A stretch of DNA of 64,000 nt from an uncultured Nitrososphaeraceae archaeon (GTDB taxonomy: Archaea; Thermoproteota; Nitrososphaeria; Nitrososphaerales; Nitrososphaeraceae): contig CAWIMJ010000046.1 in the NCBI GenBank assembly GCA_963837175.1, forward strand, positions 1-64,000, in the 5' to 3' direction. The translations under genes and the position numbers were made by a program. The notes under the pieces were generated by a model, which was not told where the DNA came from, made no database searches, and saw only the letters and a program-made list of their open reading frames with translations. Numbering within the stretch: the stretch's first letter is position 1; each line of letters begins with the position of its first letter. Positions 23,780-32,962 of the stretch are shown in pieces.

Positions 23780-24075
23780 ATATTGAAATGTTGAATCAAA
23801 TATTAGTTAAAAAATAGGTCAAGATCCACATACTCAAGTCCAATTAGTATATCGTGATGAATGCATATGAGAAGATGTGTTTGGAACAGGTATAGGTTTA
23901 ATACTACTAGAGGATCACGATAAATCCAACTGTTAGAGATTGAAATAGAAATGATCAGATAATCAATGCGTGATGATGTATATTATTTTGCACATACACA
24001 GTAAGGAGAAAGATTTCTATTAGGGACTGCTCAATTTAAGGTAAAGCGAAGCCTCTGTGTTTATGCATAACGCTT
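23780..24075 (+). mobile_element. Possible highly decayed TnpB (IS200/IS605) 3' remnant
   Basis: With frameshifts: DP.YSSQ-like (23823-43), PNC-like, D...NA..IL-like (23953-85), then GAAGCCTCTGTGTTTATGCA resembling a right-end motif. Weak. Confidence 0.25.
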
Positions 24076-24188
24076 ATTTATAGTAAGTCTCCGTCTGTTA
24101 AGCAATTTTTTACTTCTCATGCGAAATGTAATATAATTCTATATTAAAGAGTTGAAACTATTATATTGTATTTCGACGTTATGACTCG

Positions 24189-24566
24189 ATGAATAAAACA
24201 ATCACTATCTTATTAGTGGTAACGCTGACTTTCGGACTTATTTTGGCAGCTACAAATTTTGCTGTTTCAACAGTTGCACAGACAGTAACAACTGGCGGTT
24301 CTGGAAATGGCAGTACAGCAATGGATAATGCAACTAATGCTACTACTACAGCAACTGATAATGCAACAACAATGGGCAGTACAGCAATGGATAATGCAAC
24401 TAATGCTACTACTACAGCAACTGATAATGCAACAACAATGGGCAGTACAGCAATGGATAATGCAACTAATGCTACTACTACAGCAACTAGTGATAATGCA
24501 ACAGGTGGAAATAATACAAAGAATCCATTGAGCAATATTCCTATAATAGGAGGTTTCTTTAAGTGA
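24189..24566 (+). CDS. Secreted Thr/Asn/Ala-rich repeat protein
   Basis: Signal peptide ending AQ; 22-aa repeats GSTAMDNATNATTTATDNATTM; tail KNPLSNIPIIGGFFK. Confidence 0.85.
   Translation: MNKTITILLVVTLTFGLILAATNFAVSTVAQTVTTGGSGNGSTAMDNATNATTTATDNATTMGSTAMDNATNATTTATDNATTMGSTAMDNATNATTTATSDNATGGNNTKNPLSNIPIIGGFFK
24309..24503 (+). repeat. 66-bp tandem repeat x~3
   Basis: Units start at 24309, 24375, 24441; first two identical, third with an AGT insertion and truncated. Confidence 0.95.
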
Positions 24567-24979
24567 TATTCATGCAAGAATAGAATTATTGAATAATATG
24601 ATGCAGCGGCTTTATTTTTAACCCGCATCATTGAAACTATTTTTGCTTGTCGTTTTGATTCTATCTTCTCCATGACGTTAGAGTCAAATAGGATTAATTA
24701 TTGTAGTTCGTTTTACTACGTTTACGATGACATCGAGTCTGAATATAATATTATTAAGTGCTTTTGAAAAACATTTTAATTATCAGACAAATACATAACT
24801 GTGAAATACGTTAAGTGGCATTTAAGCATAATTCAAAAAGGGAGTAGAGGAGTAAGATGATAGGTTGTTGATGGATAAATAGTTGATTAATCATTCTTCC
24901 TATCCCGCGTTTTACTTCTTCCACTTAAGATTCGTTAAACGCAAACTTTACACTCTAAGAATCACAGATACACACAGAG

Positions 24980-25588
24980 ATGGCCAATAATAAGGTTTCA
25001 AGTGATTCATTAGAGAAAATTGCTTCAGAAGTGATTGGCTGCCCCCTATGCAAACTTTCGACGAGCAGGATAAATGCTGTGCCAGGCGAGGGTCAACTTT
25101 CATCAAAAATAATCCTCATTGGTGAAGCACCAGGCAAAAATGAAGATGAACAAGGGAAACCCTTTGTCGGTGCTGCAGGAAGGGTTTTGAATCAAGCATT
25201 AGAAAAAGCAGATATAAAAAGAGATGAAGTTTTCATAACAAATGTAGTAAAATGTCGACCTCCAGGTAATAGAGTGCCTGAAAATGACGAACGCTCTATC
25301 TGCAGACAATATCTGTATAGAGAAATTTCACTTATTGCACCGAAAATAATTTGTATTCTAGGAAGTACTGCGTACTCATCAATTCTTGGTGGAAAATCAA
25401 TTACTAAAAACAGGGGAAAAATAGTGGAAAGAAATGGACTAAAGTACTTTCTAACCATCCATCCTGCAGCTGCAATTTATAACAAAGAGTTAAGGTCAGT
25501 ATTAAATAACGATCTCCTTAAGTTATCAAAAGAAATTAAAAAAATAGAATATAATAGTAGAACATTGTTAGATTACAGAACAGATTAG
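24980..25588 (+). CDS. udgA: Uracil-DNA glycosylase family 4 (Fe-S)
   Basis: CPLC.L, GEAPG..ED..G.PFVG.AG, NVVKCRPP.NR, HPAA. Confidence 0.93.
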   Translation: MANNKVSSDSLEKIASEVIGCPLCKLSTSRINAVPGEGQLSSKIILIGEAPGKNEDEQGKPFVGAAGRVLNQALEKADIKRDEVFITNVVKCRPPGNRVPENDERSICRQYLYREISLIAPKIICILGSTAYSSILGGKSITKNRGKIVERNGLKYFLTIHPAAAIYNKELRSVLNNDLLKLSKEIKKIEYNSRTLLDYRTD

Positions 25589-25637
25589 ATTAAATTATAA
25601 CTGCTTTATTATATAATAACCAGTATTATCTGTACAT

Positions 25638-25769
25638 ATGGACCAAGGTGAGCCTGGAGTCGATTACGACGAGCCTAATTTGAATCCATTAATATGTGAT
25701 TTGTGCAAGAAGACGTTCGATAGTTTAGATAAACTTGGAGAACATCAAAAACAGGAACATGATATGTGA
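25638..25769 (+). CDS. 43-aa C2H2 zinc-finger microprotein (not in ORF track)
   Basis: MDQGEPGVDYDEPNLNPLICDLCKKTFDSLDKLGEHQKQEHDM*: C-x2-C-x3-F-x5-L-x2-H-x4-H. Confidence 0.85.
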   Translation: MDQGEPGVDYDEPNLNPLICDLCKKTFDSLDKLGEHQKQEHDM

Positions 25770-26102
25770 TTAATCTTCCTTTTGTGCAAACATAAGAATC
25801 ATGCTATATAAATCTTGAAGTATTATTCTAAAATATACTGTGATCCAATTCAGAATGGTAATATTATTGGGAATGGCATATTATATGAAGCTACTTGAAA
25901 CACACTCTGCATTTGTAAATTATCGATTTTTCAATTGTTTGGATAGTATCATATTATGACAATAATTTGAATCTTAAATATGGGATAAGGAAGCATATAA
26001 AAATAACAAAAAGTCTTGTCTATACTATTACATACCTAAGATCAAGGATACTAACATAAATAACCTAAAGAACCTAAAATAATACGGAAGTCTGATTTTG
26101 AC

Positions 26103-26492
26103 ATGTCATCTGAGGAACAACAGCAAAACGTCGAAAAAATGGCAGCAGCTATTGAAGATCTCTTATACATGGAAGCCATAAAATTCGGCGATGCAGACCA
26201 CCTGAGCGAAAAGGCAATTCTATCAAATCAGTTCTCTATTATCATATCAAATGTAATGACTAATATGAATCTCAAAGAAGATGACGACAATGAGATTATG
26301 AAGTTGATGTACTATTCTCTTTTAATATACATAAATGAGCATTTGAAATTGCCAAAATCATTGACAATGGCTTTGGGTAATGATCTCGAAAAGCGGCGAG
26401 AAGAGATGGAGTCTGGAGAATTGATCTCAAATTACGTAACTGTGTTGCACAGCATATTTACAAAGCAGCGAAAAGATATAAAAAAAATTTAA
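26103..26492 (+). CDS. Hypothetical helical protein
   Basis: 129-aa ORF with normal composition; no motif recognised. Confidence 0.75.
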   Translation: MSSEEQQQNVEKMAAAIEDLLYMEAIKFGDADHLSEKAILSNQFSIIISNVMTNMNLKEDDDNEIMKLMYYSLLIYINEHLKLPKSLTMALGNDLEKRREEMESGELISNYVTVLHSIFTKQRKDIKKI

Positions 26493-26984
26493 CAATCACT
26501 TATCATAAAATGACAAATTATTCAGCATATATCAAATTCCATATTTTACTACCCTGTGAATTCTTGTGTCGAATAACTTCGGGTGTATAATATAGTGAGA
26601 ATGGAATTGAGTTTTACTACTACAGAACGAACTGATGCATCATACGTGATACAAAAAGGCAATCAATTGCTTAAGTTTGAATAGGATAATGATTACCCTG
26701 ATTACCATATAAACTATTGTATTACATGGTAGTCTACATAGCGAATACTCTATCTATTTCTTTAGCCTTTGTAGTTAATCAACAGGTTATCCATGACGGC
26801 TAAATTAACTATACAAATAATGTAATAATTAACAAGGGATTTGATTTTATATTAACTTGTATTTAGAAAGATTGCTATCAATACGTTTGCAAGGTTTTAT
26901 GTTGCTATAGCTGTACGATAACATAATGGATATTAAATAGATATTAAAAAAATCCATATTTCAAGGCGTAGTTTCACTTCTTTT

Positions 26985-29120
26985 TCAAATTGGCAGAATA
27001 TAAGGTGACTTGCAGTATTCACATCTTTCATTAGATTGTGTACTTGATCTTTTACCACAAGTGTTGCACATGAATAGTCTATACACAAGACGGAAAAAAT
27101 GTAGATCTGATGCACTCTCTATTGCGTTCTTTACTTCTATATCAGAAGAAAGCTCGCTTATATCCAGAGTTAATGAAAGACCGCCATTGAGTATATTGTC
27201 TATTGAGTTACATTCTTTAATTACAGAATTATGTTTATTATTGTCAGATAATAATAACTCCCTAGCATTCAATGTTAACCCTTGTGAATACGTAATTGTA
27301 TTTTGTTGATTTGAGTTTAGAAGAGAGATCCTGCCATATTTTTCAGAATCTAGAGTTGCAAATCTTGTAGCACTATCATCATGTATCATAGCAATTCCTA
27401 TAGAGTCTTCTCCAAGATGTTTACCCTGTTCTACGGCTACCTCCACAGCGGTCTTCAAAACTTTTTGCAAAATCTCTGCTCCATCTTTGGAAGTGTCATG
27501 ACCTAAAATTTTATAGACTGACTCTTCTGCTCCAATAAGGTTAATTATAACATTAGTAGTTCCAAGCTGCATAAACTGTGTGCTGTTGGCAATCACAGGA
27601 ATCATTTGTTTCCTTATGAGATCAGCAATAACCTTCTTCCTCAAGGACATTGCAGATAATGCAGGCTTTATCATGAGAGCAAGCCTGGCCCTGAAATAAG
27701 TTTCATCCTTATTAGACTGATATGCTAGTCTTGGAAGATTAATAGAAAGTGATTGTAAGGTCATAACCGTACCAGAAGCCTTGCCCCCTATACTTTTACG
27801 AACACCATTGTTACTTCTAGATCCACTCTGTAATATGGAAATGATACCACCAGCGCGTACTATTGACCCAATAGTATCAGTATAATCCTTTAGTTTGCCA
27901 TTATTGATTAGAGATATTCCTATTCTAGGAACAGGAGTAGAAACAATGTAACTTCTATAACCAGACAATACTGCATCAATTGAATTTTTATCAAATTCAT
28001 CCAATTGAACTGTTATTGTAGTAATAGGAAGTCCGGATGAAGAATAGGATGGTGCTACAGAAGATGCCATCAGAATATTCTCAAATCGTGATGCAATATA
28101 ACTCGGCTCCTTTATGTGATCTTCTAGTAGTAATGGAATAACTCCATCCAGTACAATTTCTGTTGAAACCTCTCGACTTAGAAGCGAAATCAATATAGGC
28201 AGAGCAATTCCAAGGTCATTTGAATTCTTTATCGCTGGTATTCTGGATACATTTAAGAATTTGCCTTTTAAATCTAAACCGGCTTTGGCAAAATCAGCAA
28301 TATTTAGAAATAAGGTATCAGGGAGCAAGCTCCAAATGCCACTGTTAGAGATACTTATTTCACCATTCAAGTGCATATCTGCTATATCTTTTGGGAGTAT
28401 ATTCAGCATGAGATGTTCTGAGAATACAGATTGAGAAGCCTTTGACATTATACTATCAGCTCCGTTCTTCATTGTGTCTATATTATTTATCATTTGTGCA
28501 ACATCAGAGGCAGGTAATCCTAATCTAGCCAACTTGTTTCTATATTCTTCATGTCCATGTTCAATCAACACGGAATTTACCGTTTCTCTAATTAATGAGG
28601 AAGTAAGATAGGAAGTCTGGAATTTGTATATCTTGTTTTCAACCTCTTCTGTGATTTTGTTTGCCTGTTCAAGTGGCATGTTCGCCTCTCTTACTAATGA
28701 CTGGATTATCTTATGGGAATTAAACTCTTCAATTGAATGTCTGGTAGTCCTAACATACATTTTGCCACTTTCAATTATTGATCTCTCTTCTATCTGTCTA
28801 GCAAGGCTCAATACCAATTTACCCAAGTTAGTAATAGTGTAACGTCGTTCTGCCTTGTTAAGAGCAACAAGTGATTGTCTTAATAGTTTTCGTAAATGAT
28901 ATGCAAATTTTCCAGATTCCTTTTTAGACTTAAATCCAGCAAGAGACTTTAACTCCGAATAAGTCAGAGGTCCTTTAGAATTTAAAATACGCAGAATATC
29001 AATTCTATTAGGGCTAGCCATAACAGAAAAAATCATTCTAACTCGCTTTGAGGCAGATTCTAAAACTCCATCTCGCTTTATTTCTGTTTGATATGAATAG
29101 TCGTGACTCAACTGTTCCAT
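26985..29120 (-). CDS. wHTH + ATP-cone + degenerate class III ribonucleotide reductase (NrdD)-like protein
   Basis: ArsR-like RIDILRIL..KGPLTYSEL..FAYHLRKL; ATP-cone YVRTTRHSIEEFN..KI..SL; NrdD-like PKDIADMHLNGEI, SINLPRLA, RFATLD, TYSQG, NGG, CxxC..CxxC. Confidence 0.85.
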   Translation of the reverse strand: MEQLSHDYSYQTEIKRDGVLESASKRVRMIFSVMASPNRIDILRILNSKGPLTYSELKSLAGFKSKKESGKFAYHLRKLLRQSLVALNKAERRYTITNLGKLVLSLARQIEERSIIESGKMYVRTTRHSIEEFNSHKIIQSLVREANMPLEQANKITEEVENKIYKFQTSYLTSSLIRETVNSVLIEHGHEEYRNKLARLGLPASDVAQMINNIDTMKNGADSIMSKASQSVFSEHLMLNILPKDIADMHLNGEISISNSGIWSLLPDTLFLNIADFAKAGLDLKGKFLNVSRIPAIKNSNDLGIALPILISLLSREVSTEIVLDGVIPLLLEDHIKEPSYIASRFENILMASSVAPSYSSSGLPITTITVQLDEFDKNSIDAVLSGYRSYIVSTPVPRIGISLINNGKLKDYTDTIGSIVRAGGIISILQSGSRSNNGVRKSIGGKASGTVMTLQSLSINLPRLAYQSNKDETYFRARLALMIKPALSAMSLRKKVIADLIRKQMIPVIANSTQFMQLGTTNVIINLIGAEESVYKILGHDTSKDGAEILQKVLKTAVEVAVEQGKHLGEDSIGIAMIHDDSATRFATLDSEKYGRISLLNSNQQNTITYSQGLTLNARELLLSDNNKHNSVIKECNSIDNILNGGLSLTLDISELSSDIEVKNAIESASDLHFFRLVYRLFMCNTCGKRSSTQSNERCEYCKSPYILPI

Positions 29121-29225
29121 TGCACCCGTTATTCGAATAAATGATTAAAACTACTTTGTAAATTTTTCTTTACCAATCATATAATAGACCCTACTTCTAT
29201 CAAATTGATTAGCAGGTCAACAGAT

Positions 29226-29841
29226 TTAACTTTCAATCATCATACGATCATTTTTTACTGTGACTTCATCCACTTCTTTTCTGATCCTAACCTCCTGAAT
29301 AGTATTTGGAACTTCTGGTAATCGTGACTTTGCTTCATCTTCAAGTATTCCTTCGACTTCGTTTAATATTGAAAGCGCGTCAGCATCCATAGAAGTTGAA
29401 ATCTTGCCTACCTCTGACTTGATATTGGAGCTATGTAAAACGTCCGATGTCATTGACGTCATCTCTGATAACAAATGGCTTGCTGCTGGAACTGCCCTCG
29501 AAATATCACTTTGAATCTCCTTGATCATGTCAATAGTTGGATTAATGGTATCAAGCACCATGGCGAATTCATTGATAGTACCTGAAGCGAATTAGTACTA
29601 CTTCTAATGCAAGGCTCATGTTTCGCGTAGTCCTCTGAACTCGATGTATATTTGCTAGCTCTATTGCAAGAGATCTTGCCGTAGCATTGTTACCTTCCTT
29701 TATGTTAGCAGCTATTTTATAACGTAAGTCTTTATCCATCATGATGAACTTTTTATCAAGCATATTCAATCGAGTGAGTTGGTTATGAACTACTGTGCTA
29801 GCGGTTAAGATATCACTCATAAATTGTTGATGCTTGCCCAT
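29226..29841 (-). CDS. cdvB: CdvB/ESCRT-III (Snf7) paralogue; one-base frameshift at 29581-2
   Basis: ARSLAIELANIHRV...MSLALEVVLIRF then, removing one G, STINEFAMVLDTINP..; DA.SILNE...ILE.EAKSRLPEVP tail. Joins ORFs 29569-29982 and 29226-29561; start uncertain. Confidence 0.8.
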
Positions 29842-30162
29842 CTTCTTTTCTGTCCAAAGTTGATTATTAAAAATGTTAAAACTAAATGTTAATGTATATA
29901 TACAAAAAGCTGTTACAAAGCTAGCTACAAACTCAAAGTTGACATAAGCTGTAGATGAGCCTAAACCTAAAGTTTCATACATACATCATTAATATATTTT
30001 AGTTATTGCCAACTTTTTGTAATGCAATTGATTGTATTTTGAAAGTAATAAAACAATTCCTAGCAACTACAAAAAATCAATAGGATAACGATCTACTCAA
30101 CTTTTTACATATATTATCCAATAAGTATGTGAAGATATATGTTCTTTGATCAGAAGTAAGAT

Positions 30163-30531
30163 CTAAAGCTTCTGTAACAAAAGACCATGTTTTGGATCAA
30201 AGCCAGCTACTTTGACTGTTGTTCCTATAGGTAGATCTTTAGGGGTTACAATGCTAGGAAGAAACCCTGATGCTCTAAATGGCGCATTATCTACCTTGAA
30301 AATGACCCATGCATACGACTCGGCATCTTCAAATCCTTCCGGCGCTACAGCTTGGATTGTATAAGTGACCACCTTACCAATTCCTTCTAATTCGATAGAT
30401 TCGAATTTGCTACCAGAGCATTTTTCACAATAGTTTACTGTCTCTAGCATTGTATGTCCGCAATTTGAACATTTGTTGGCAAGAATTTTATTTTTCTTAG
30501 CAGATGCGATAAATTTCTCTCGTGCACTCAT
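30163..30531 (-). CDS. DUF35 Zn-ribbon/OB-fold protein (thiolase partner)
   Basis: KCSNCG......CEKC.S, G.VVTYT; directly downstream of thiolase. Confidence 0.9.
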   Translation of the reverse strand: MSAREKFIASAKKNKILANKCSNCGHTMLETVNYCEKCSGSKFESIELEGIGKVVTYTIQAVAPEGFEDAESYAWVIFKVDNAPFRASGFLPSIVTPKDLPIGTTVKVAGFDPKHGLLLQKL

Positions 30532-30567
30532 ACCTGTTATTACCCGTTAGCCCCAGACAGTATTGTT

Positions 30568-31729
30568 TTACTGCACCTTTCTAAAAATATGAACAGCAGC
30601 ACTTGCACCAGTCGCCCCAAAATTATGTGTAAGAGCGGTTTCTGCGTTTTTAATAGTTCTTTCTCCTGCTTTGCCAGTAAACTGCTCAAAAACTTCTACA
30701 ACCTGACCTACACCTGTTGCACCTATTGGATGACCTTTTGATTTCAAACCTCCAGAAGGATTGATTGGAATTTCGCCATTTCTTCGAGTTGCTCCCTCTG
30801 TTACAGCACGAGCAGCAGTCCCTTTCGGAAAGAAACCAAGATCTTCAATATCAATTATTTCTGCGATTGTAAAGCAGTCATGCACTTCTGCAAAATCAAT
30901 GTCTTTTGGAGTAATCCCAGCCATTTTGTATGCTTGCTTGGCAGCTGATATTGTGCTTGGAATAGTAGTAATATCTTCACGAGATTGAACTGCCGCAGGC
31001 GAAGCTCCTCTGCCTGAACCTATAACTTCAATATACGGTTTTCCACTCTTCTTGGCAAACTCTTCATTACAAAGTATGATAGCTGATGCTCCATCTGAAA
31101 ACGGGCAGCAGTCATAAAAATTTCAAAGGTGAAGCCACGACAGGAGATTTCATTACATCATCAATTGTGATTTTTTTTCGAACATGAGCCTTTGGATTGA
31201 GAATTCCATTTTCATGGTTCTTCACGGCCACGTAGGCAAGGTCTTCTTCATTAGCCTTGTATGTAGTCATATATACCCTTGCTATTGATGCAAATAATCC
31301 AGGAAATGAGGCTCCATTTCCTCCTTCATAAAAGAAATCAGAACAGTAAGAAAATAAAGTAGTACTCTGACTAGTTCCTGTATGTGTTATTTTCTCGACA
31401 CCTAATGCAAGAACACAATCATAAAATCCTGCAGCTATATTGGCGTATGCTTCTCTAAACATAACAGAACCAGAACCACATGCAGACTCGATCGTAAGCC
31501 CTGGAACGTATGGAATTCCTAAGTTACTCATAATAACAGGTGCCATATGGACCTGCTTGTCAGTCACTCCAAAAACATTTGAGATATAACCCGCCTGAAT
31601 ATCCTTTGGTATAATACCTGCAGACTCTATCGCATCTTTTGAGGCATTTAATGCTATTTCAATAATACTTTCATTTAATTTACCGTATTTAGTACTGCCA
31701 GCCCCAAGGACGCAGACCTTATTTGTCAT
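30568..31729 (-). CDS. Acetyl-CoA acetyltransferase (archaeal thiolase); one-base frameshift at 31116-20
   Basis: ESACGSG, KNH.NG..NPKAH; removing one T gives PLKFYDCCPFSDGA; EVHDCFT, NPSGGL.SKGHPIGATG. Confidence 0.92.
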
Positions 31730-31839: not shown

Positions 31840-32962
31840 ATGAGACCATTTATACTTGTAATCTGTGAAAACCTCATGCCACACGAAAGATAGCACAAGC
31901 ACTTAGGATGAATTATTTCAAAAGATCCAAATCGTCAGATGGTGTTCCATTTTTTTATGCTGTTTCAAATAATAATAATCACTTTATGATATTCTCTTCT
32001 ATAGCCCACCTATACGGCTTGGTGGATGTCATAAGAATCGAGAGATACACCCTGCATTTGATTTAGAGTGGATGTCACTTCTCGCCAAGTCAGGTAGACT
32101 AATGAGTGGAGCAAATTATAAAATCAATATCAGAGGCTTCAAAAAGAGTTACCAGATTTATCCACGCCTGCGACTACGATCAAGCAGGTGAGGTCATCGG
32201 TTATAATATCCTTCAATATGCTTGTAAATTTAAGTATGAGGAATCCTTATGGGCTAAGTTTTCGACGCTTACCGATCAAGAAATAAGGGAATCGTTTGAT
32301 AATCTGCTAAAACCTAGCAGGGTATTGGCTGAAGCTGGTAGATCTAGGCATATCTTTGATTTCATATATTGAGTGAATCTTTCAAGAGATCTTTCACAAT
32401 TGTTTAAGGTAGGCAGTAATGGCAAGCAATATCATAACTTGTCCATTGGCAGAGTACAGGGACCTACTCTTTTATTTGTAGTACATAAAGAGATGGACAT
32501 TAGAATACATATTCCAGATCATTATTGGAGCATATCAGCAGATTTTGAAAAAAATGGGCACATAATTAAAGCCTTTTACAAAAAAGACAAAGTACAGACA
32601 TTATCAGAAGCAAATTCAATAATGAATGCTTGTAATGGCAAAGATGGATTAGTCAGTCAAATTAAAGTTCGAAAAATGGTACCTCATCCTCCCACTCCAT
32701 TAAATCTAAGCGATTTACAAAGAGAAGCATATAGATTATTCAAACTTTCTCCTTCTTGCATGCTTTCAATTGCAGAAAGTCTTTATCTCAGTGAGGCGAT
32801 TTCTTATCCGCGAACATCAAGTCAGAAGTTGCCATTATCTAGAGACTACAAGAAAATCATTACATCTATCTGAAGTGAATAACAATTACGAAAGCAAGCG
32901 CAGCATTACTCTCCAAGGATCGTCTTTTACAGAATGAAGGAATTAAAACCGATCCTACACTA
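31840..32962 (+). pseudogene. topA: DNA topoisomerase IA pseudogene, 3' truncated
   Basis: LVICE, HLYGL, ACDYDQAGEVIG (TOPRIM), LSIGRVQGPTL, ISYPRTSS (catalytic Tyr); several frameshifts, in-frame TGA at 32370-72, ends at DPTH. Confidence 0.9.

Follow-up and report, generated by a model that had tools for sequence, protein, structure and literature searches.

The first 64,000 nucleotides of contig CAWIMJ010000046.1, from the assembly GCA_963837175.1 of an uncultured Nitrososphaeraceae archaeon (the window, to which all coordinates refer), have a G+C content of about 29-37%. They carry on the reverse strand, at 26985..29120, an open reading frame (ORF) whose product we call P0001. It starts with ATG and encodes 711 amino acids plus a stop codon, within a stop-to-stop frame of 719 amino acids; there is no internal stop, in line with the intact 711-codon frame of a first-pass annotation made from the letters of the DNA. 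ORF calling, Pfam, an AlphaFold model and a fold search together describe a protein made of a winged helix-turn-helix, an ATP-cone, a body like that of the class III ribonucleotide reductase (RNR) NrdD, and a zinc ribbon. We consider it here as a candidate regulator of RNR genes.

Residues 25-104 (28809..29048; all parts lie on the reverse strand) correspond to a winged helix-turn-helix of the ArsR/SmtB type, matched by the Pfam families DUF7347 (residues 30-104, 40.5 bits against a cut-off of 27.6) and HTH_20 (residues 34-86, 32.3 bits against 27). A long linker helix (residues 105-120, 28761..28808; helix 98-118 in the AlphaFold model) joins it to a divergent ATP-cone (residues 121-200, 28521..28760), for which the PF03477 match covers residues 121-193 with 47.3 bits against 25.8. 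The remainder is an NrdD-like barrel without catalytic residues (residues 201-680, 27081..28520) and a C-terminal CxxC...CxxC ribbon (residues 681-711, 26988..27080). The NRDD match is weak but above its cut-off (67.2 bits against 26.2, best stretch 432-704). All NCBIfam NrdD equivalogs stay far under their cut-offs, the best being TIGR02487 with 48.7 against 326.35 bits, and the HTH_metalloreg subfamily is under its own (23 against 55). An Rfam scan of 24000-31000 gave no match.

The predicted structure agrees with this partition. An AlphaFold2 model (pLDDT 83, pTM 0.72), for which 24 members of the family were used, has only NrdDs as its top Foldseek matches, with Thermotoga maritima 4col_B first (E 1.3e-19, TMt 0.62), followed by S. 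thermophilus 9dca, P. copri 8p2c and phage T4 1hk8 (TMt 0.66); class I RNR structures rank after the NrdDs, at E of only about 1e-8. The barrel is thus shared with the solved NrdDs of T. maritima (4coi, 4col), T4 (1h78, 1hk8) and P. copri (8p2c), at E 1e-19 to 1e-14 and TMt 0.6-0.67. The N-terminal model resembles ArsR/SmtB repressors, best CzrA (1r1v_B, TMt 0.76, root-mean-square deviation 2.4) and also SmtB, CadC and HlyU, over about 95 residues with TMt 0.7-0.77 and deviations of 2-2.6. These repressors are stand-alone metal-sensing dimers of about 100 residues, whereas in P0001 the domain heads a protein of 711 residues. Because the model matches class III reductases before anything else, the initial domain reading (ArsR-like winged helix, NrdD-like body, terminal CxxC..CxxC), with which Pfam also agrees, was right.

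P0001 shares with NrdD the motifs NLPR and RF..LD..KYG, the C-terminal ribbon with four cysteines and the N-terminal ATP-cone, and its barrel also retains YSQG. It differs from NrdD by its extra winged helix and by lacking HxHD, the thiyl cysteine, the second cysteine, the asparagine equivalent and the glycyl-radical loop. In the alignment of the family profile with T4 NrdD, where the N-terminal half of P0001 aligns weakly to solved NrdDs, HVHD pairs with SISN (family consensus HISN), Cys79 with Thr269, Cys290 of MGCRS with a gap or a Ser directly before Arg435, and Asn311 with about T452, a non-conserved position. T4 C290 and E. coli C384 are the thiyl cysteines at the tip of the finger loop, and the alignment positions agree with this numbering. 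SISN at the HIHD position had been read by eye in the first-pass annotation and is found again here; its placement of the GCR position at NGVRK was off by a few residues, but no alignment puts a cysteine there. For the P. copri enzyme, the published account gives Cys416, Gly711 and Asn435 as catalytic residues, and describes HxHD as the grip on the substrate triphosphate in solved NrdDs (PMC11226230).

Cysteines are five in P0001, as had been counted, and the only conserved ones are the four of the ribbon (C685, C688, C700 and C703), which all 24 members of the family share. Only 8 residues follow C703, and they form no glycyl-radical loop, again as annotated, and no RxxGY tail was found in the frames downstream. 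The loss is family-wide. In one alignment that included E. coli K-12 NrdD, with small windows scored around each catalytic site, the 24 proteins of the ammonia-oxidizer type had no HxHD, no Cys near E. coli C175, one stray Cys near C384 and one chance GF for the G[YF] near G681. Longer relatives from another class, Bathyarchaeia (n = 46), had no HxHD, a Cys near C175 in 3, a Cys near C384 in 8 and G[YF] near G681 in 3, never the last two together, while the 14 genuine NrdDs encoded next to such relatives had all four features. It is close to certain that P0001 is non-catalytic. Another, non-radical chemistry in the old active site, or a role in binding or processing nucleotides, might be suggested by the retention of NLPR, RF..LD..KYG and YSQG in its vicinity, but the motif for the substrate triphosphate is lost in all 24 members, the family alignment holds no new conserved polar cluster and the body evolves fast; we regard a residual enzyme as very unlikely.

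The source genome has 3.8 Mb in 58 contigs and is 91% complete. P0001 is its only NRDD match, and NrdG, said earlier to be missing nearby, is not found above cut-off genome-wide either (best TIGR02495 with 45.2 against 131, and TIGR02491 with 32.8 against 126), an absence that is not proven, because the genome is 91% complete. The only other RNR gene, on a different contig, encodes one large subunit with a canonical ATP-cone, and its orthologues in related genomes look class II-type. There is no third ATP-cone protein beyond P0001 and this subunit, and therefore no NrdR in the genome. A working class III RNR, with its glycyl radical supplied in trans, is already contradicted by these results, by the missing finger-loop cysteine, by the absence of a downstream RxxGY frame and by scores far under the NrdD equivalog cut-offs; we found nothing in its support and give it practically no credence.

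The ATP-cone is recognizable by profile and by fold. In an hhalign comparison with cones from E. coli NrdD and from the NrdJ genes next to family members, it reaches a probability of 75% (E 2.6e-5). The cone model matches NrdR structures first (9a6n_B with E 7.5e-4, 7p37_A, 9fxk) and also the cones of PaNrdA and LbNrdB, with E-values that are weak overall (7.5e-4 to 3e-2); a phmmer search of the P0001 cone alone against the PDB gave no ATP-cone. In the hhalign alignment Thr125-Thr126 sit on the canonical Lys-Arg of V-x-K-R-D-G, for a family consensus of Thr-Ser. Every inspected member, from ammonia oxidizers and Bathyarchaeia, has V-R-T-S/T, with V123-R124 invariant. In P. copri NrdD, according to the same account, Lys7 and Arg8 touch two bound nucleotides, together with Arg87, Arg91 and Tyr83 (PMC11226230). 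The ATP-cone had been called complete; it is an ATP-cone by Pfam score and fold, but it is not complete, its canonical Lys-Arg being replaced by Thr-Thr. With the residues that canonically hold the triphosphate missing, the usual ATP/dATP binding is not implied by the sequence, and the earlier view of the protein as an ATP/dATP sensor gains no support from it. The cone is nevertheless strongly conserved and its model resembles the cones of NrdR, so it has some function.

Relatives of P0001 are numerous. A word-indexed protein search gave 4105 proteins at E <= 1e-3 among 8000 candidates scored, and among the 120 matches listed identities were 77-99%, with all four Pfam domains in 119. An exhaustive search of representatives at 50% identity gave 997 matches at E <= 1e-3 and 172 at E <= 1e-30. 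Proteins 91% identical to P0001 are named from metagenome-assembled genomes (MAGs) of Nitrososphaeraceae. Names vary among homologues, from 'ribonucleoside-triphosphate reductase (formate)' to 'DNA-binding transcriptional ArsR family regulator' and 'ATP cone domain-containing protein', and 'anaerobic ribonucleoside-triphosphate reductase' is also found, bearing out the guess that some would be annotated as NrdD. In Nitrososphaeria the gene is single-copy and near-universal: it was found in 177 of 201 sampled genomes and in 159 of the 161 that are at least 90% complete (an unpublished genome, G132, is part of these genome counts only). All genomes of the families f2 (114) and f1 (14) have it, and none of the 14 of family f7, most of which are <91% complete.

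Conservation is uneven along the protein. The winged helix and the cone are its most conserved parts and the enzyme body the least, with mean column identities of 0.77 for the winged helix, 0.73 for the linker helix, 0.71 for the cone and 0.37-0.53 for the barrel. Between P0001 and the homologue P0123 the winged helix is 99% identical, and the whole protein 56% by phmmer. P0001 is thus an ArsR-type winged helix joined to the scaffold of a dead NrdD, and it is under purifying selection; as the first-pass annotation had proposed, this is not a case of ordinary decay. No evidence emerged for a natural short form with only winged helix and cone: there were 548 short matches, and those listed are pieces of 189-390 amino acids, 88-100% identical, many of them named 'partial'. 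In RNA libraries, 18 soil runs hold 30-59% of the sampled words, and contigs from four soil studies cover 27195-29119 at 95-100% identity; as these libraries may also contain DNA, this is weak support for expression, and the stretch 26141-27127, without RNA-library contigs, was given no evidential weight. Nitrosopumilus-type orthologues (L023, L025, L029, L034, L036, L041) have an Asp/Glu-rich N-terminal extension of 25-45 residues (MKMSDEELELDLEGDLD...), if the first ATG is used, which is missing from the Nitrososphaeraceae protein.

Gene neighbourhood links the family to RNR. In 29 of the 30 best-scoring Nitrososphaeria loci, the next gene downstream on the same strand encodes an RNR whose N-terminal, canonical ATP-cone (IRKRDGR...) leads into a reductase of the class II type, with a spacer of about 150-470 nt between the regulator and the cone motif. 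Among 20 more distant loci, 13 have an RNR gene within 3.5 kb, in tandem (6), convergent (6) or divergent (1) orientation, with only a weak partial match at L042.

The same association occurs in Bathyarchaeia, with a different reductase. A scan of a genome collection confirmed 560 of 575 candidate stretches, of which the best 80 were kept, and gave the longer relatives, of 740-800 amino acids, from MAGs. We chose 25 Bathyarchaeia loci with long flanks and put 39 of the 100 listed flanking ORFs through Pfam. Of the 25 regulators, 14 have as their next large downstream neighbour a full-length NRDD gene (481-532 bits), often preceded by a glutaredoxin-like ORF of about 101 amino acids, and one further locus has a class II RNR downstream. 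The 14 neighbouring NrdDs all carry HIHD, the cysteines and SR[IV]TGYY. The Bathyarchaeia proteins (e.g., P0165, 766 amino acids) resemble P0001 in architecture, in the 'VRTS' cone, in the EYRHKLTRLG motif and in their similar winged helix; they too are dead enzymes encoded upstream of an RNR gene. They differ by a vestigial glycyl tail, about 40 residues past the ribbon that align to the glycyl-radical region of E. coli with the Gly mostly replaced, by a retained RTGN motif, by higher NRDD scores and by their neighbour, nrdD instead of nrdJ. At one of these loci (L084:4557-5855, forward strand), a second protein with DUF7347, HTH_20 and HTH_5, of 433 amino acids, is encoded upstream of the regulator and has no ATP-cone or NRDD match at E <= 1e-5.

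Since the dead copy adjoins nrdJ in one class and nrdD in the other, it tracks the working reductase whichever its class. Such proximity could also mean that the protein acts on RNR directly, as a dead paralogue that binds the active enzyme (e.g., in a heterodimer with NrdD) or its nucleotides and tunes activity, the winged helix serving for localization or a second role. The pairing of NrdD paralogue and genuine NrdD in Bathyarchaeia suits this idea, as does the retention of barrel and ribbon under selection. In ammonia oxidizers, however, there is no NrdD to pair with, P0001 being the only NRDD match of its genome, and their class II enzyme differs in how its fold is arranged. The enzyme body is moreover the least conserved part of P0001, and the winged helix the most. 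We therefore find a protein-level partner unlikely.

The relatives also suggest how the family arose. Pfam NRDD scores are about 500 bits in the genuine neighbouring NrdDs, 220-307 in the Bathyarchaeia regulators, 46-200 in other variants, 67 in P0001 and about 21 in some forms without ribbon. The winged helix and the cone are found in nearly all of these (P0189 has only cone and NRDD at E <= 1e-3). A quick maximum-likelihood tree, in which 10 genuine NrdDs are too few to place the origin within NrdD diversity, separates one clade of ammonia-oxidizer forms (support 100) from one of the genuine NrdDs (98), with the Bathyarchaeia regulators between them. Both tree and score gradient are compatible with a single origin from a duplicate of nrdD, without proving it. 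The first-pass annotation had invoked aerobic life, in which an oxygen-sensitive enzyme would be of little use; this fails to explain the origin, because dead copies coexist with live NrdD in anaerobic Bathyarchaeia.

Bathyarchaeia provide a candidate for a cis element. The 17-bp word TATACAGAATTTTATAC lies between the regulator and the genes for glutaredoxin and NrdD in 12 of 15 spacers scanned with a loose regular expression (e.g., L092:8381-8397). If up to 3 mismatches are allowed, 37 of the 80 Bathyarchaeia loci (L062-L141, 838 kb) contain it, each a single time, and 32 of these 37 sites are on the same strand, 16-281 nt past the end of the regulator match. Two genomes, one of them of 2.2 Mb, have a single exact copy each, in both cases at this position between the regulator and the genes for glutaredoxin and NrdD. 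Three genomes without an RNR gene after the regulator lack the word, also with up to 2 mismatches. The word may be the operator of the regulator or a promoter element. It was not found, with the loose expression, in 28 spacers of ammonia oxidizers.

In the source genome, the 105-bp spacer upstream of the ORF contains an imperfect palindrome, TTGACCTGCTAATCAA (29205..29220, reverse strand). Relatives have a better form of it, TTGACC-N4-GGTCAA, at about the same place (L013, L015 with TTGACCTTTTGGTCAA, L017) or further upstream (L016). These genomes are, however, related to each other, and the palindrome comes directly after the stop codon of the upstream gene. The form TTGAC-N6-GTCAA is found upstream of the regulator only in Nitrososphaeraceae-type loci, against a background of 56 matches in 335 kb at up to 1 mismatch. 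We thus treat the palindrome as a candidate site only. A block conserved in L012-L018, TTTACAAAGTAGTTTTAATCA (29142..29162, reverse strand), about 20-40 nt before the ATG, is a putative core promoter, resembling a TFB-recognition element (BRE) and TATA box.

Other motifs did not hold. A Gibbs sampler run on 25 regions upstream of RNR genes in ammonia oxidizers returned the codons of the regulator's zinc ribbon in its first output, and then the start region of nrdJ and a TGTCAA-N5-TTGA block of Nitrosopumilaceae. In 5 genomes this last word is no rarer than its control, the reversed word (11-21 matches against 3-16), and it was therefore dropped. A palindrome upstream of nrdJ in Nitrosopumilus-type loci, TATGAA-N-TTCATA, has 2-4 sites per genome in 4 of 5 genomes and none in G074; its other sites are in coding sequence or beside unrelated ORFs and outline no regulon, and G004 has none at the RNR locus. 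One Nitrosopumilaceae locus (L036) has three tandem units of about 57 bp (ACTGATCATGAAGATCTTCACGCGAGATCGTTTTCGCGTTTGCAACGAA...) some 100-300 nt upstream of the start of the regulator.

The genes around P0001 in the window show several interrupted frames. Directly upstream, at 29226-29982 (reverse strand), lies a gene labelled by eye as Snf7/ESCRT-III-like, for which Pfam gave no match at E <= 0.01. Where relatives have a single ORF of about 207 amino acids, the window has two, of 137 and 111; an RNA-library contig (run X3) is one base short at 29581, near the junction of the two ORFs, so the split is probably an assembly indel. Further upstream on the same strand are, by Pfam, a gene of the DUF35 type with OB fold and zinc ribbon (30163-30531) and a thiolase in two ORFs (Thiolase_C 30568-30924, Thiolase_N 31112-31729). 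Many relatives have the thiolase-DUF35 pair just upstream of the regulator, with the C-terminal part of the thiolase in one continuous ORF. On the forward strand, at 32106-32873, abutting ORFs of 88 and 166 amino acids look by eye like pieces of one gene of the Toprim/topoisomerase type, which would be the third split gene within 4 kb and suggests an indel-prone assembly. Downstream of P0001, in the region where relatives carry the RNR gene, there is a gene of the uracil-DNA glycosylase superfamily (24980-25588, forward strand; PF03167, E 1.2e-34). Beyond it, an ORF of 125 amino acids with a hydrophobic N-terminus (24189-24566, forward strand) has no Pfam family above cut-off and contains three tandem Thr/Asn/Ala-rich units of about 21 residues (GSTAMDNATNATTTATDNATTM).

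We favour, from the domains of the protein, the pattern of its conservation and its gene neighbourhood, a DNA-binding transcription regulator of the cell's RNR gene, a pseudo-NrdD that would act as an archaeal functional analogue of NrdR. We hold this to be probable, if well short of assured, and a number of observations count against it. The single exception among the 30 best loci is the source genome itself, where the RNR gene is on another contig. No RNR gene lies within 3.5 kb in 7 of the 20 distant Nitrososphaeria loci, and the nearest downstream ORF is not an RNR in 10 of the 25 Bathyarchaeia loci (in 8 of them the nearest ORF alone was tested). In ammonia oxidizers we found no operator that the promoters of RNR and of the regulator would have in common. 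The Bathyarchaeia word TATACAGAATTTTATAC is a direct repeat, not an inverted one, and may be part of a promoter. The family-wide change of Lys-Arg to Thr-Thr/Ser makes nucleotide binding by the cone doubtful, or at least non-canonical. Nucleotide sensing by the regulator is thus plausible from its ancestry, and weakened by the altered cone. Of the NrdR analogy first proposed, the adjacency to a working RNR in two archaeal classes gives support; the separation of the two genes in the source genome and the missing Lys-Arg do not.

Some of these points would suit a DNA-binding protein whose role has nothing to do with RNR, for example in general regulation, in replication or in chromatin. The thiolase/DUF35 pair upstream is also syntenic in ammonia oxidizers, as if the whole block were conserved, and RNR adjacency could be partly inherited gene order; the missing operator and the unlinked genes of the source genome fit this as well. 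Yet linkage to RNR is kept in three orientations and across two classes with different RNR classes, which inherited order alone explains poorly. We judge an unrelated role rather unlikely. It is, like a protein partner or residual chemistry, less likely than an RNR regulator.

The comparison of the putative regulator with NrdR is one of function. NrdR boxes are paired 16-bp palindromes upstream of RNR operons. In a published study, NrdR is described as forming nucleotide-controlled oligomers on these boxes, and as binding DNA by an N-terminal zinc ribbon with no enzyme body (PMC12176259). P0001 resembles NrdR in having a DNA-binding module next to a domain of the ATP-cone type, and in the genomic tie of its family to RNR genes. 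It differs by an ArsR-type winged helix for its predicted DNA binding, by a dead NrdD barrel after the cone, by a C-terminal zinc ribbon of NrdD origin and by a cone without the canonical Lys-Arg. Taken over its whole length, P0001 is not homologous to NrdR. A full-text literature search, with subscription journals and supplements outside it, gave no description of an archaeal fusion of winged helix, cone and NrdD; an earlier mention, e.g., in RNR database work or arCOG annotation, is possible.

The history of the regulator would have started with a duplication of nrdD, and in Bathyarchaeia the resulting family would still sit beside the parental gene. Chemistry would have been lost and the scaffold retained for dimerization, perhaps also for nucleotide binding. 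The regulator may then have stayed at the RNR locus as ammonia oxidizers turned to a B12-dependent class II enzyme. The winged helix would bind near the RNR promoter, perhaps also at its own, and a nucleotide-dependent change in the cone or the body would alter DNA binding. More tentatively, with doubts that somewhat exceed our confidence, the family could be the missing archaeal counterpart of NrdR: a reductase-derived factor that reads the nucleotide pool through its remodelled cone, the former allosteric and substrate sites in the dead barrel, or both, and sets the expression of nrdD or nrdJ, with TATACAGAATTTTATAC as its operator in Bathyarchaeia.

Ammonia-oxidizing archaea are among the most abundant microbes of soil and sea, and Bathyarchaeia are widespread. 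To our knowledge, little is known of the control of archaeal deoxynucleotide supply at the level of transcription. The label of anaerobic reductase misleads metabolic reconstruction, by implying a class III RNR in an aerobe. New here are the near-universality of the gene in Nitrososphaeria, its adjacency to RNR in two classes, the relatives with a vestigial tail and their 17-bp element, and the uneven conservation of the protein. If our reading is correct, the family would clearly exemplify how the duplicate of an enzyme became the regulator of its own pathway and then outlived that enzyme, and it would open direct access to the way nitrifiers control DNA-precursor synthesis and B12-dependent growth.

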